Part shown: in pieces, positions 1-5,339 of the stretch
How the letters are laid out: every line of letters begins with the position of its first letter
Position numbering within the stretch: the first letter of the stretch is position 1
Virus record (IMG/VR): IMGVR_UViG_2548876867_000014
Length of the DNA stretch: 5,339 nt
DNA from: a virus
Taxonomy: Duplodnaviria; Heunggongvirae; Uroviricota; Caudoviricetes
Reading direction: 5' to 3' (one strand)
Notes under the pieces: model-generated
Seen by the model: the letters and a program-made list of their open reading frames with translations, nothing else
Told to the model about the DNA's origin: nothing
Database searches by the model: none
Made by a program: the position numbers and the translations under genes

Positions 1-270
<270 letters not shown>

Positions 271-293
271 TTACCGTTAAATCATTTTAAAAT

Positions 294-340
294 CAGTAAG
301 TTGTATCGAGTTTGTATGCTTTACTGTCATTAACTTACTG
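294..340. repeat. 9-bp perfect inverted repeat CAGTAAGTT (294-302) / AACTTACTG (332-340) with iterated TGTAT motifs in the yfhL-int intergenic region
   Basis: Read directly: the arms are exact reverse complements separated by 29 bp. TTGTAT/TGTATG recurs at 301-306, 312-318, 339-344 and 354-358. Function is unknown; possibilities are integrase arm/core sites or an operator. Confidence 0.4.
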
Positions 341-355
341 TATGTTGATCCAGTG
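336..355. promoter_or_regulatory. LexA (SOS) box-like sequence TACTGTATGTTGATCCAGTG
   Basis: CTGT-N8-cCAG, satisfying the CTG-N10-CAG core. The left half TACTGTAT is identical to the E. coli LexA consensus half-site (TACTGTATATATATACAGTA, from memory); the right half matches 6/8. It lies about 75 bp upstream of the yfhL ATG and about 120 bp upstream of the int ATG. Sequence-only call. Confidence 0.25.
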
Positions 356-475
356 TATTTAACCTTGATAAACTCAGTCCAGCAACACAAAACCGCAACA
401 CATTGCATTTTGTCCCGTAGAAAAGACTTGTATGTGTGAGCTTGTTTTCTGCGCCTACGCAGATAAGGATTGAGA

Positions 476-1873
476 ATGCCGCGCACTGTAACACATAATC
501 CGGATAGCCCCAATAATGACGATGTTTTAGCCGCTTCTGAAAAATGGGACGCCTGTAAACCCCCCTATACCAGCGCACACATGAAAATCTGTGTTGCTGC
601 CGCCAAAATCATCCTCGCTGCTTCCGGCGTGGCTCGCCGTTCCAAATACGAAAAAGAGAACTATCTCCGTATCGATTTCAGCAAAGCCGGTAAGGTTACA
701 TTTTACGCCGAGTTTCCAAAAAAGATGGGCCTCAAAGGTAAAAAGCTCGGCGAGTGGCCGGAGCTCGCTATCCAGCTGGCGCGCGAAAAAGCACTAGGTA
801 TGGCTGACGGTGGACTGCGGGCAGAGTCCGTACATGCAGCGCTGGAAATGTACCGGGATGACCTCAAAGCCAAAGTAGCCCGTCAGAAGCTGAGCCCGGA
901 CAGTTTCACAACCTACGGGGTGCGTATCGACCGGATTAAATCAACGTTCGGCGAGCGCGAGGTGTTCGGCGACGTAACATACAGTCGGCTGGTGGAAGTG
1001 CTGGACGAGTGGATCGCCACTCGCTCGAACAATAACGCCCTGGAGTTGTTTGCCGAGCTCCGTCGGTTCTGGAAGTTCTGCGCACCTACTCTTTGCAACG
1101 GCCGCAATGTTGCCGCCAGTCTGCCAGATGATTATGTTTCCTCCCGCGTACAGAAACCTACCCCCACACGGCTTTTTACCGATATTGAATCAATCGCCCG
1201 ACTCTGGCTCAATGTTGCTGCCTGCACCTCTGTACACCAGAAGAATGCTGTTCGCTTCATGATCATCACTGGTGTTCGTCCGATTAATGTCCATAACCTG
1301 CGCTGGGACTACGTTCACGAGGAGGCTGGTGAAATTGTTTATCCGGAAGGGGTTATCGGCATGCGAGGGGCTATGAAAACACAAAAGGCTTTCCGCCTGC
1401 CGATAACGCCTGAGATCCGGCGGATTATCGACGAGCAGAAAGCCTGGCGTGATTCAGTTCCTGAGTGCAACAGGGATTATGTATTTTTGCAGCCACGTGA
1501 TCCAATGCAGCCATTTTCAAAACGATCACTGGATAAGCTGGTGAAAACATACAGCCCGGACGGGGCTGTAAAAGGAATAAAACATGATGGGACTGTTAAA
1601 GGGAAAGACGGTGCATTTAATACGATGTGCCGTAAATTCCTTAAGAGCAATGTTATTGCCTTGATGAAGGAAAGAGGCTATTCCCGCTCAGACCGAAGGG
1701 AAATCAGCCTCCTTTGCCTTCACCACTCCAGCAAGTCAGATGACCCGATGGCAGAACATTACGACTTTTCTGATGAGATTTTACAGGAAGAGATTGCGTT
1801 GAAGCGCGAAGCTTTCGAGGCTCACGAGCGGAGCATACTTGCGCAGGTGGCATTGCTACGGCGGCGAGGTTAA
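476..1873 (+). CDS. int: Tyrosine recombinase / phage integrase, P4-like with N-terminal arm-binding domain
   Basis: Long ORF with ATG at 476 preceded by AAGGA (465-469) and a 6-nt spacer; the ORF track starts at an in-frame TTG at 470. The N-terminal stretch YLRIDFSKAGKVTFYAEF...LGEWPELAIQLAREKA resembles the DUF4102-type arm-binding domain of P4-family integrases. The C-terminal half has recombinase-like segments (ITGVRPINVHNLRW; HHSSKSDDPMAEHYDF with a candidate catalytic Tyr). TAA at 1871-1873. Confidence 0.82.
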   Translation: MPRTVTHNPDSPNNDDVLAASEKWDACKPPYTSAHMKICVAAAKIILAASGVARRSKYEKENYLRIDFSKAGKVTFYAEFPKKMGLKGKKLGEWPELAIQLAREKALGMADGGLRAESVHAALEMYRDDLKAKVARQKLSPDSFTTYGVRIDRIKSTFGEREVFGDVTYSRLVEVLDEWIATRSNNNALELFAELRRFWKFCAPTLCNGRNVAASLPDDYVSSRVQKPTPTRLFTDIESIARLWLNVAACTSVHQKNAVRFMIITGVRPINVHNLRWDYVHEEAGEIVYPEGVIGMRGAMKTQKAFRLPITPEIRRIIDEQKAWRDSVPECNRDYVFLQPRDPMQPFSKRSLDKLVKTYSPDGAVKGIKHDGTVKGKDGAFNTMCRKFLKSNVIALMKERGYSRSDRREISLLCLHHSSKSDDPMAEHYDFSDEILQEEIALKREAFEAHERSILAQVALLRRRG

Positions 1874-2070
1874 TACTGGCTGCGACATTTTTGAATAAAA
1901 GCGTCGACATTTCGGCGCTCATAACGAACTACTTTTGCACTGAAACGAATTGGTGCCAGGATAGCCCGATGACGATGCTTAATATTCAACTCACATAGCG
2001 TTTTCTGTGTAATACCTAACTTTTGGCATACTTCATCCGGGGTGAGTAAATCGTCGGGTTTCTCGCTCAT
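1870..2070 (-). CDS. AlpA/excisionase-family helix-turn-helix protein (putative Xis or small regulator)
   Basis: 66-codon ORF. LLTPDEVCQKLGITQKTL is the HTH typical of AlpA/Xis-type phage proteins. Its ATG (2070..2068) overlaps the helicase TGA (ATGA at 2067-2070), and its TAA (1872..1870) overlaps the integrase TAA (TTAA at 1870-1873). Confidence 0.72.
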   Translation of the reverse strand: MSEKPDDLLTPDEVCQKLGITQKTLCELNIKHRHRAILAPIRFSAKVVRYERRNVDAFIQKCRSQY

Positions 2071-3458
2071 GCTATACCTCTCTTTTTCATGGCATCGAGC
2101 AGGATGTCCTGCACTGTTCGTTTTGAGTTGCGCCGCTCCATCACCATTTCGTCCATAGTGTCGGCAGCAATAATGTGGTGAATAAATACCGGACGATTGT
2201 GTCCGGCCTGTATCTGTCTGGTTGGGCCGATACGTTCAATAATTTGCTGATATTGCTCCAGGTCCCACCAGTGTGAGAAAAATACCAGTATATTTCCGCC
2301 GTCCTGCATGTTCAGGCCGTGGCCCGCGCTGGCTGGGTGTGCAAAGAGAACAGGAATCTTTCCGGAATTCCAGTCGCGCAGTGTCTGTGGAGCCTGGTCG
2401 AGGTGACGACCGCGAGGGAATGCTTTAAGCAAGCGTTCAAGATCGTGTTTCCAGTGATAAGCAACCAGCACAGGTGCGCCAGCTGCTTCGGTCAGTATGC
2501 TGTCCAGCGCCTGTAGTTTGGTGTCATGCAGTTCTGACCAACTTCCGGTGTCATCTGTGTATACTGCGCCGCTGGCGATTTGCAGACACTTCAGTGTCTT
2601 TGCCGCGGCGTTCGGTGCTTCGATGCCTTCGCCATTCAGCTCGAGGAACATTTCCTTTTCCATTTCACGATACTGCTGACGGGCCTTCGGCGGCATATCC
2701 ACGCGGATTACGTTATGGATGGGGTCTTTGATATCGAACCAGTCGGCCGCATCCAGCGAGAGGGTCACATCGGCTAACGCTCGCTGTATTTCACCCTGTG
2801 AGTGAGCAAAAGGCTCCAGTTTGGTCCAGCTCTGCCCCGGAAACTGTATCGATTTGAACCAGCGTGAGGTAAACGCGCCGTAAGTGCGCCCGAGACGTTG
2901 CCCCTGGTCCACAAACCACGATTGTCCCCACAAATCTACCAGGCCGTTCGGTGCTGGCGTACCGGTGAGATTTATCCAGCGCCGGACATACTTGTGCGCC
3001 ACTTTGCCCAGCGCCGCCGCGCGCTTACCACCACCTCGCAGCCGGAAGGATTTTAGCCGGGTGCTTTCATCTGGAATGACAGTACCGAACGACCATCGTT
3101 CTCCCAATTCTTCAACCAGCCAGACAAGGTTATCGTAGTTGATTGTGAACACGCTCGCGTTGCTGTTCGCCAGCGCTGTAGAGCGCGCTTTGGCGTTACC
3201 GATGATCGGCTGTACCTCAATATTACGCAGATGCCCCCATTTAACAGCTTCATCAGGCCAAGTGCTTGCTGCAACGCGTAGCGGCGCGAGGACCAGCGCG
3301 GGGCGTGTTTCTGCTCCAGCCATGAAAAGATCTTCCAGCGTGGTGAGTGTCGCTACGGTTTTACCCATCCCCATCCCTGCCCAGATGTTGCCGCGCAGGG
3401 TCTCGATTTGATGATTGATGATGAGATCTTGGTAGGGACGTGGTTTAAAAGTTATCAT
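2067..3458 (-). CDS. SNF2/RAD54-family DNA helicase/ATPase (phage replication-recombination module)
   Basis: 463-codon ORF with ordered motifs: RPYQ (Q motif, residues 7-10), GMGKT (Walker A), DEST (motif II, DExx), LTGTPAPN (motif III), and a C-terminal lobe with QQIIERIGPTRQ (motif VI-like). Start ATG at 3458 is preceded by AGGGA about 8 nt upstream on the - strand. Confidence 0.85.
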   Translation of the reverse strand: MITFKPRPYQDLIINHQIETLRGNIWAGMGMGKTVATLTTLEDLFMAGAETRPALVLAPLRVAASTWPDEAVKWGHLRNIEVQPIIGNAKARSTALANSNASVFTINYDNLVWLVEELGERWSFGTVIPDESTRLKSFRLRGGGKRAAALGKVAHKYVRRWINLTGTPAPNGLVDLWGQSWFVDQGQRLGRTYGAFTSRWFKSIQFPGQSWTKLEPFAHSQGEIQRALADVTLSLDAADWFDIKDPIHNVIRVDMPPKARQQYREMEKEMFLELNGEGIEAPNAAAKTLKCLQIASGAVYTDDTGSWSELHDTKLQALDSILTEAAGAPVLVAYHWKHDLERLLKAFPRGRHLDQAPQTLRDWNSGKIPVLFAHPASAGHGLNMQDGGNILVFFSHWWDLEQYQQIIERIGPTRQIQAGHNRPVFIHHIIAADTMDEMVMERRNSKRTVQDILLDAMKKRGIA

Positions 3459-3481: not shown

Positions 3482-4207
3482 GTGCTCTTGAACATCATGA
3501 ATGTAAAAGATTTATCAATTACAACGGTTCTCTTGGCCGCCCTTTATTTTATGGCTTTTTCTTTTTACAAAGGGTACAGCTCATTTTATGGATTCCCTGT
3601 AAGTTTTATTTCTATTGGGATTGAGGAAATAGTTAAATTTTCTGTTATTGCATTAGGACTTTTGTGCACCTTAGTCGCTTTGCTGCATATTGATACTGAA
3701 GAGAAGAATATTCCATGGTGGGTGTATTTATTTTTCTTCATTTTGGCCTCTTTGCTTTCATACTGGACAATGTATTTATATGGCGGTAGCTCATACCTTT
3801 ATGAAAAATCCATAAGGGATGTGGCTACCCAAGCAATACTGTTGGGATTTATTAGCCCTATCAGTGTCAGGGCAGTATCTGTTTTTATTAGGAATGAATT
3901 TAGAATAAAAAACAAAACTCATGGGGTTATGCTTTTTATATCCATAGCAATGCTTCCTTCAGTCCTTGGGTGGGCATGGGCATACTTATCAGATGAGCCT
4001 CTTTTTTATTCTAAAAAATATGATGCTTATATTATCGAAAGCTATAACGGAAAATTTGTCTTGGGGAACTGTAAAAAAAATAGCTCTGAATTTATGAGTG
4101 TCGAAGGAATTGAGGGGAAATTAATTCCTGTAAGCATAAAAGAAACACAACAACTAAAAGTATGTTTTTTAAAAGCTTCTAAGCTCAAGAAAAATCGCTC
4201 AGAATGA
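3482..4207 (+). CDS. Hypothetical multi-pass membrane protein, AT-rich moron; no recognisable catalytic motif
   Basis: ORF on the strand opposite to all flanking phage genes. Start is GTG 3482 or more likely ATG 3497 (MNVKDL...). Hand counts of sample 60-nt stretches give about one-third G+C (3541-3600), against about 65% in a helicase sample (3001-3060). About five hydrophobic segments: LSITTVLLAALYFMAFSFY, FSVIALGLLCTLVALLHI, IPWWVYLFFFILASLLSYWTMYLY, AILLGFISPISVRAVSVFI, GVMLFISIAMLPSVLGWAWAYL. These are followed by a roughly 70-aa hydrophilic, Lys-rich C-terminal region. Stop TGA at 4205-4207, 5 bp from the convergent VRR-NUC stop. Confidence 0.6.
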   Translation: MLLNIMNVKDLSITTVLLAALYFMAFSFYKGYSSFYGFPVSFISIGIEEIVKFSVIALGLLCTLVALLHIDTEEKNIPWWVYLFFFILASLLSYWTMYLYGGSSYLYEKSIRDVATQAILLGFISPISVRAVSVFIRNEFRIKNKTHGVMLFISIAMLPSVLGWAWAYLSDEPLFYSKKYDAYIIESYNGKFVLGNCKKNSSEFMSVEGIEGKLIPVSIKETQQLKVCFLKASKLKKNRSE

Positions 4208-4988: not shown

Positions 4989-5339
4989 TTAATCCTTACG
5001 GTAGTGGTACGCCTCAAAACCGCCAGCGTTCAGTGGGATATCGGGCGCCCATTCGGGGTTAGTGGAGAGAAGTGCGGAAAGCGCTTTATCGTTGAAATCT
5101 TCTGTGTCAGGTGCTTCGGTGATCACCTCGTCGTGTACCGTCAGCACAATGCTGTAACCGGCATCTTCGATAAGCGGCATGTTTCCGGCCAGAATGTCGC
5201 GGGCGGCCGCCTGGGTGATGTTCTCCACCAGCTTTCCGCCGTAGGTTTTGAGTCGTTGCCATTTACGCGAATAAGAGTTAACCCCTAGACTGGCCCCCTG
5301 AATCTCCAGACAACCAGTATCACTTAAATAAGTGATAGT
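4989..5339 (-). CDS. Family-A DNA polymerase, C-terminal fragment (N-terminus lies beyond the window edge)
   Basis: The - strand frame is open from 5339 with no stop until TAA at 4991..4989, so the GTG at 5228 in the ORF track is probably internal. The C-terminus [11 protein letters not shown]...[15 protein letters not shown]...[17 protein letters not shown] aligns by eye with E. coli Pol I (recalled from memory: QGTAADIIK...MIMQVHDELVFE...DVPLLVEVGSGENWDQAH), including the motif C HDE. Confidence 0.62.

Follow-up and report, generated by a model that had tools for sequence, protein, structure and literature searches.

A 20-bp LexA-box-like imperfect palindrome, TACTGTATGTTGATCCAGTG, lies between the ferredoxin gene yfhL and the integrase gene int in the window, by which we mean the whole 5,339-nt stretch of DNA analyzed here, and we predict that it is a LexA operator whose main role is probably repression of the int promoter. 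Binding of the box by LexA, an element common to this reading and to two of the alternatives considered below, is predicted to be quite likely. LexA operators are well known in kind, as are mobile-element recombinases under SOS control; what is new is a predicted, and as a prediction well-supported, case in which the site lies, unusually, within an att arm. The features concerned are as follows, in order of their position in the window.

1 to 261, minus strand: yfhL (4Fe-4S ferredoxin), a host/phage chimera in the lysogen and the alternative regulated gene (open reading frame [ORF], annotation, and genome comparison)
214 to 231, no strand assigned: att core TTCACACATATCACAATT within yfhL, recurring at the far end of the prophage (exact copies at 512 to 529 and 41303 to 41320 of L101, the prophage of strain 97-3250)
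232 to 261, minus strand: phage-supplied substitute for the first 10 yfhL codons (aligned to the empty K-12-like site; DNA diverged, frame kept)
261 to 273, no strand assigned: second IHF-like candidate, one mismatch to WATCAANNNNTTR
291 to 303, plus strand: IHF-consensus-like site AATCAGTAAGTTG between core and box, one mismatch to WATCAANNNNTTR
336 to 355, no strand assigned: the LexA-box-like imperfect palindrome, read directly, the only CTG-N10-CAG in the window, with a heterology index (HI) of 8.98
345 to 350, plus strand: TTGATC, the -35 hexamer predicted for the int promoter, falling within the right half of the box (part of the top sigma-70-like site in 8 of 13 representatives)
366 to 374, plus strand: predicted TG-extended -10 (TGA TAAACT; hexamer at 369 to 374), from promoter scans and conserved columns in alignment A2
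382 to 389 and 395 to 402, plus strand: direct repeats GCAACACA, likely arm-type Int sites, invariant in A2
476 to 1873, plus strand: tyrosine integrase gene int, 465 aa, the proposed regulated gene (ORF; identical RefSeq region annotated as tyrosine-type recombinase/integrase; Pfam PF00589, E = 4e-7)
488 to 495, plus strand: third repeat GTAACACA
1870 to 2070, minus strand: excisionase-like HTH gene that converges on int and closes the leftward early operon (matches Pfam HTH_17 at E = 2.4e-5, a little under the gathering score)

Sequence and phage origin of the box

Direct reading of positions 336 to 355 bears out the sequence-only reading, which had described a CTG-N10-CAG core with a perfect left half-site between yfhL and int: CTG occupies 338 to 340 and CAG 351 to 353, bases 1 to 8 of the box are identical to the LexA consensus half-site TACTGTAT, and the box lies in the 214-bp spacer that separates yfhL (start at 261, minus strand) from int (ATG at 476, plus strand). 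The box thus has the 16-bp palindromic core CTG-N10-CAG within the 20-bp TACTG(TA)5CAGTA motif that defines E. coli-type LexA operators. A shuffle expectation of 1.12 for the single CTG-N10-CAG in the window agrees with the earlier estimate that the core alone is expected about once by chance. The same reading held that the half-site makes the match somewhat more specific; the site is in fact much more specific than was claimed, the full 20-mer being expected far less than once per window, as detailed next.

The box was scored with a Lewis-type HI matrix derived by linear fit from 140 published sequence/HI pairs in the supplement of the PSOSP paper, which lists potential E. coli K-12 SOS boxes with their HI values (PMC12527982, Table S1). 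The fit left zero residual on every value and gave a symmetric matrix consistent with 38 half-sites; a penalty of ln(38.5/0.5) = 4.34 was assumed for other bases at the six CTG/CAG positions, the table holding CTG/CAG sites only. Scoring with a LexA weight matrix, as had been proposed earlier, supports a LexA operator: the box has an HI of 8.98, and the runner-up 20-mer in the window has 16.28. Depending on base composition, the exact HI distribution gives a random 20-mer a probability of 4e-7 to 1.2e-6 of having an HI of 8.98 or less; the expected number of such sites is 0.002 to 0.007 per window, ~1e-4 to 2e-4 per 214-bp spacer, and ~2 to 6 per 4.6-Mb genome. The score falls between the published E. 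coli values of 8.80 and 9.19. We take the values of 8.80, 9.19, and 8.32 in the table to be those of uvrD, ruvAB, and lexA box 2, respectively. In the work of Lewis (1994) and Fernandez de Henestrosa (2000), LexA-binding sites reportedly lie at HI values below about 12.6 to 15. The box is also well within the low-HI cluster delimited by Mean-Shift in PSOSP (all values ≤13.60), which showed 100% concordance with 24 experimentally tested E. coli boxes (PMC12527982).

The prophage sits in the 5′ end of yfhL, and everything from position 232 onward is phage supplied. Compared with the empty site of prophage-free E. coli, the window is fully identical up to 231, continues as a diverged in-frame stretch, and then loses homology. 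The native yfhL start reads MALLITKKCI; the start codons differ in the lysogen, and the ferredoxin ORF is intact. The 18-bp core recurs at the far end of the ~41-kb prophage of strain 97-3250, beside the native yfhL 5′ remnant and yfhH. Bases 1 to 251 of the window were matched by all 5,426 complete E. coli genomes, and the match extended through to int in 160 of the 5,426 (int-proximal arm at ≥80% coverage), STEC O26/O111-type strains among them; the opposite prophage end is present in ETEC H10407. Serratia phage vB_SspS_OS31, whose Int is 76% identical, has the same layout, including the replacement yfhL start, and its authors reported integration in a ferredoxin gene and induction by mitomycin C. 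Since the prophage is inserted within the 5′ end of yfhL, so that positions 232 to 475 are the attL arm, the box is a feature of the phage and not of host DNA. A role as a host regulatory site of yfhL was rejected, because homology to prophage-free genomes stops inside yfhL and the empty site is without a LexA-like sequence (best HI, 17.1 in 3.25 kb, native yfhL upstream region included). Because the prophage cuts yfhL off from its native upstream DNA (the yfhH side), the yfhL promoter of the lysogen must itself be phage borne, within 262 to 475.

Conservation of the box in related elements

The related loci collected comprise 17 from species-representative genomes, 80 from IMG/VR, and 43 from metagenomes. 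Across ~130 related elements, of Escherichia, Kluyvera, Citrobacter, Sodalis, Pantoea, Providencia, Serratia, Erwinia, and metagenome origin, the 20-mer upstream of int that is most LexA-like is nearly always 139 to 142 nt from the int ATG. Among the loci of the representative and IMG/VR sets with a homologous upstream region, the best 20-mer in the 240 nt before int was located at -139 to -142 from the ATG in 97 of 97; these loci carry 14 box variants with HI values of 6.65 to 15.05, and their second-best 20-mers score 15.5 or higher. Most metagenome relatives, down to ~58 to 60% Int identity, have a LexA-like 20-mer at the same place, for example TTCTGTACTTATATACAGTA, with an HI of 6.32. The conservation check proposed earlier therefore found both position and LexA-likeness to be kept across many genera.

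The substitutions in these boxes are LexA compatible. Relative to the E. coli box, the orthologues have changed at 25 to 45% of positions, much as the flanks have (17 to 53%), yet the HI stays at 6.9 to 12.3 in most lineages. In the alignment of 13 diverged representatives (A2), the invariant box columns are TGT at 339 to 341, TT at 345 and 346, and CAGT at 351 to 354. The LexA consensus base was seen at every position among 20 variants, and box position 15 was only A or C, the two bases used by LexA sites. Under neutral drift simulated at the flank rate of each lineage, 0.05 to 2% of boxes were as LexA-like as the real orthologue, and the mean LexA cost over the 20 variants was 0.98 for observed bases versus 3.08 for unobserved bases; the P values of both comparisons are inexact because phylogeny was ignored, and several independent lineages behave alike.

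LexA control does not appear to be universal in the family, because several relatives depart from the pattern. In the clade of Serratia, Erwinia, and Pantoea B65, GTG replaces the critical CTG, as it does in OS31, and in Providencia-type relatives TTG does so. Two relatives (L138 and L141) were without a LexA-like site upstream of int. A metagenome contig (POVV01000437.1; L140) carries, ~145 nt before int, a perfect palindrome, ACTGTAT-TTT-ATACAGT, with CTG-N9-CAG spacing that is one base short, which may reflect a homopolymer sequencing error or a lineage with lost or changed binding specificity. Degraded or missing boxes accompany four of six clearly degraded int copies (L018, L143, L144, and L145, not L019 and L142), which is suggestive only of a tendency for degraded int and degraded box to go together. 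Clades with CTG, GTG, TTG, N9 spacing, and no box amount to a natural experiment within the comparative data.

The predicted int promoter and the att arm

Promoters were sought on both strands of the 13 diverged representatives with our own sigma-70 position weight matrix (PWM), for which we supplied the base frequencies. In 8 of the 13, either strand considered, the same plus-strand promoter-like site ranked highest, with a -35 of TTGATC in the window, TTGATA in Kluyvera, and TTGTAC in Pantoea stewartii and a TG-preceded -10 of TAAACT or TACACT at 369 to 374; the predicted spacing is 18 nt. A stricter consensus scan of the Kluyvera spacer returned TTGATA-18-TAAACT as the sole promoter-like site. 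The int promoter match of the window itself is 8/12, under the scan cutoff of 9/12, and since the stricter scan of the window gave sites only at or after the int start, the proposed promoter rests on the orthologues and on our own PWM. In A2, T366, A372, and C373 are invariant, and G367, A368, and A370 are kept in ≥90% of sequences; the invariant TT at 345 and 346 of the box supplies the first two bases of the predicted -35. From these positions we infer an int transcription start near 381, which would put the box at about -46 to -27. In the clade with GTG boxes, the best promoter (TTGAAA-17-CAGAAT) lies 20 nt further downstream, off the box, which is the pattern expected if operator and promoter have separated there.

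The box lies 121 to 140 nt before the int ATG and 75 nt from the yfhL ATG, and the sequence-only reading had left both genes as candidate targets. We assign it to int because the top promoter-like site reads toward int with its -35 in the box, whereas leftward candidates score lower and are unconserved and native yfhL is without a LexA-like site; of the two earlier candidates, int is thus the better supported and yfhL the less so. A GATC (Dam site) at 347 to 350 falls within both the box and the predicted -35 of the E. coli-type variant (TTGATCC), and the Kluyvera/Citrobacter variant reads GATA; an effect of methylation at this site on int expression is speculative.

If LexA occupies the box in an undamaged lysogen, it would cover the -35 and spacer of the sigma-70 promoter and keep int transcription low. 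DNA damage would then lead, through RecA-stimulated cleavage of LexA, to release of the int promoter. Simultaneously, the CI-like repressor with its S24 peptidase would be inactivated, and this would open the leftward early operon, whose last gene is the excisionase-like one; int, because it points the opposite way, is out of reach of that operon. Int and Xis would thus appear together, and the prophage could be excised from yfhL. An HI near 9 predicts moderate repression, under which an infecting phage may still have sufficient Int to integrate; the E. coli genes with SOS boxes of comparable HI are only moderately repressed. On the other side, the distance from the box to the int ATG exceeds that of most SOS boxes, and if LexA represses the int promoter, it has to be asked how Int would be supplied when the phage infects an undamaged cell.

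The box also has a fixed place in the architecture of the att arm, in which the core (214 to 231) is followed by the IHF-like site (291 to 303), the box, and the arm-type repeats (382 to 402). IHF-like matches in the window number 7 versus 5.3 expected, so the count alone is not significant; the invariant columns of A2 coincide with the consensus-specified IHF positions, AATCA....TT. AACACA is present in each arm of the strain 97-3250 prophage (L101 positions 680, 693, and 786 and positions 41199 [minus strand], 41245, and 41257), and the G(C/T)AACACA / AATAACACA repeats are probably arm-type Int binding sites. The conserved TGA..AAC block of the arm doubles as the predicted -10. The first G(C/T)AACACA repeat starts at the predicted int transcription start, an arrangement that could allow Int autoregulation. 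A role for the box as an arm-type Int site had been suggested by the 7-mer TTACTGT at 321 and 335, its sole related direct repeat, and by an inverted copy at 294 to 302; it was rejected, as the G(C/T)AACACA repeats occur in both arms and only the box copy is conserved, the copy at 321 being unconserved in A2. The box does not resemble an accessory site of the IHF or Xis type either, the IHF matches lying elsewhere and the box being a single inverted repeat and not a set of tandem direct repeats.

Nearer to int, the sequence ATGTGTGAGC at 432 to 441, 35 to 44 nt before the int ATG, is almost invariant (ATGTG.GAGC) in Int relatives down to 68% identity and had no Rfam match. A conserved upstream ORF beginning at the ATG at 432 was rejected, as the Providencia orthologue reads ATG-TGA.

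Alternative readings, known systems, and neighboring genes

A second LexA-like box, GACTGTAATTATGTACAGTT, with an HI of 9.00, was found outside the window on the attR side of the strain 97-3250 prophage (L101 positions 41108 to 41127), ~180 nt from the att core and 12 to 31 nt before an unannotated minus-strand ORF of 88 aa (L101 positions 40829 to 41095) without a Pfam match. It is kept as CTG-N10-CAG in ETEC H10407 and in strain S1-IND-01-A; an exact-match search for it in IMG/VR found none. At the corresponding genome end, OS31 has an annotated LexA site, with an HI of 5.33, before a dinI-like gene. This site and the second box together indicate that the phage family routinely uses host LexA. 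The publication on OS31 and its GenBank entry mention no LexA site other than that on the dinI side, and the int-proximal box is neither annotated nor discussed there; in a literature search on LexA control of phage integrases and on the yfhL prophage, neither a LexA box preceding this or any related phage integrase nor LexA binding was described.

LexA could bind the box and yet act on something other than the int promoter. One such possibility is that its chief target is the phage-supplied promoter that reads leftward into the chimeric yfhL, or that it controls both divergent promoters, so that the ferredoxin would be SOS inducible in lysogens. The phage-borne yfhL promoter has to lie in 262 to 475, the distance from the box to the yfhL ATG is shorter than that to int, the -10 of one minus-strand candidate (TGGACT-18-TACACT) falls at the right edge of the box, and LexA boxes common to divergent genes are known, as in uvrA/ssb. 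We nevertheless regard this as rather unlikely: the minus-strand candidates score lower and are unconserved over the 13 representatives, two IHF-like sites intervene between box and yfhL, and native yfhL is without a LexA-like site, so there is no evident reason for it to be under SOS control. It is also conceivable, but in our estimation quite improbable, that LexA gates recombination and not transcription, in that LexA bound at the box, with the IHF-like site on one side and the arm-type Int sites on the other, blocks the excisive (and integrative) intasome until SOS removes it. The host repressor would then be a recombination directionality or timing factor, independent of transcription, an idea to which we again give very low weight. 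The location of the box inside the functional arm of attL (and attP), between IHF-like and arm-type sites, fits such a gate, as does the presence of a LexA box of about HI 9 in each attP arm. However, the box in the opposite arm is placed like an ordinary operator, just before an ORF ATG, as is that of the OS31 dinI-like gene, and promoter overlap is sufficient to explain the box on the int side; moreover, we know of no precedent for LexA directly hindering intasome assembly.

The remaining readings dispense with LexA. In one of them, a different protein, for example the phage excisionase or an att accessory factor, binds the palindrome, and the likeness to a LexA box is incidental; we consider this unlikely, although it has some points in its favor: att arms are dense with accessory-protein sites, and the GTG clade keeps a near-perfect palindrome and L140 a perfect one with N9, both of which would weaken LexA binding. 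A phage-specific protein would be expected to coevolve with its site, whereas the box stays near the host LexA matrix despite the extent of base change among orthologues. Its conservation is also asymmetric in a LexA-like manner (CAG is kept and the adjacent A/C varies), it is unlike the CI operators of the prophage, and there is one site per arm in place of the direct repeats typical of Xis sites. A chance match without function would be compatible with the bare CTG-N10-CAG core, which is expected about once per window, but very unlikely given how rarely a full site of this HI is expected and given that position and score are conserved across genera; chance was rejected on the exact HI distribution and this conservation.

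Repression of int by LexA, the reading that we prefer, can be set beside several known systems. The chromosomal SOS boxes (uvrD, ruvAB, and lexA box 2, on our assignment of HI values of 8.80, 9.19, and 8.32) share with the box a CTG-N10-CAG core and comparable HI values; they belong to host repair genes with demonstrated LexA binding, whereas the prophage box is phage borne and its LexA occupancy is predicted. The dinI-side site of OS31, like those of the PhiKO2 and Gifsy dinI homologues, is a host-LexA operator by att and, in OS31, belongs to the same phage family, but unlike the int-proximal box it governs a small accessory gene and lies at the other end of the genome. The closest established parallel to our predicted case is offered by the integron integrase genes intI1 and Vibrio cholerae intIA, where the promoter of a mobile-element tyrosine recombinase contains a LexA box of the E. 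coli type, so that the SOS response turns recombination on. Integron boxes vary among homologues yet stay LexA-like, with control validated by EMSA and RT-PCR, and they overlap the -10 within -100 to +50 of the integrase start codon (PMC3108266). The prophage box, by contrast, is 121 to 140 nt upstream, on the predicted -35 and inside an att arm, and the prophage Int is a phage arm-binding Int working with Xis and not an integron integrase.

The gene layout is that of Stx phage Phi24B, in which, as in the yfhL prophage, int is opposite to xis and the early operon; according to the passages of the Phi24B report on which we draw, the inverted int has its own promoter, pInt, and escapes CI, xis is under CI, and the lysogen's expression of int and its capacity for multiple lysogeny are linked to this layout (PMC3064807). 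Phi24B pInt is reportedly expressed in the lysogen, and LexA control is not described in those passages (PMC3064807), whereas the predicted promoter in the yfhL prophage has a LexA-like operator. If LexA does act at the int promoter, such an operator would restore damage dependence, and a two-key arrangement, with LexA for Int and CI for Xis, would solve the problem of an inverted int beyond the reach of CI. Host LexA would then directly control the integrase of a widespread family of yfhL-inserting prophages, and the integron rule that SOS controls the recombinase would extend to a temperate phage integrase.

The PF00589 match of int exceeds the gathering score, as expected of a tyrosine recombinase, and the OS31 homologue of the excisionase-like gene is annotated as excisionase. 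Beyond that gene lie further minus-strand early genes (SNF2 helicase, VRR-NUC, DUF4406, and DNA polymerase). The CI-like repressor of the prophage is divergent from a cro-like gene, lies upstream of the leftward operon, and is, by Pfam, a Cro/C1-type HTH_3 plus Peptidase_S24 protein and not LexA; the lytic genes are governed by this cleavable repressor of the phage. The immunity-region palindrome of the strain 97-3250 prophage, TTAATGTG-N6-CACATTAA (L101 positions 12986 to 13007), is unlike the box, and the box as an operator of this repressor was rejected, as the immunity-region palindromes differ. Searches of the window found no tRNA and no Rfam match at E ≤ 1.

The right end of the window, 5286 to 5339, is the end of a multicopy insertion sequence, and matches to the final 56 bases occur in 4,364 plasmid records; we take this terminus to be that of IS2. 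Because related prophages run uninterrupted past 5285, the insertion sequence interrupts the phage DNA polymerase gene, and the prophage copy in the window is probably replication defective. A hydrophobic, AT-rich plus-strand ORF of 241 aa at 3482 to 4207, annotated in RefSeq as a shorter hypothetical protein, runs opposite to the surrounding early genes and looks like a moron-type insertion.
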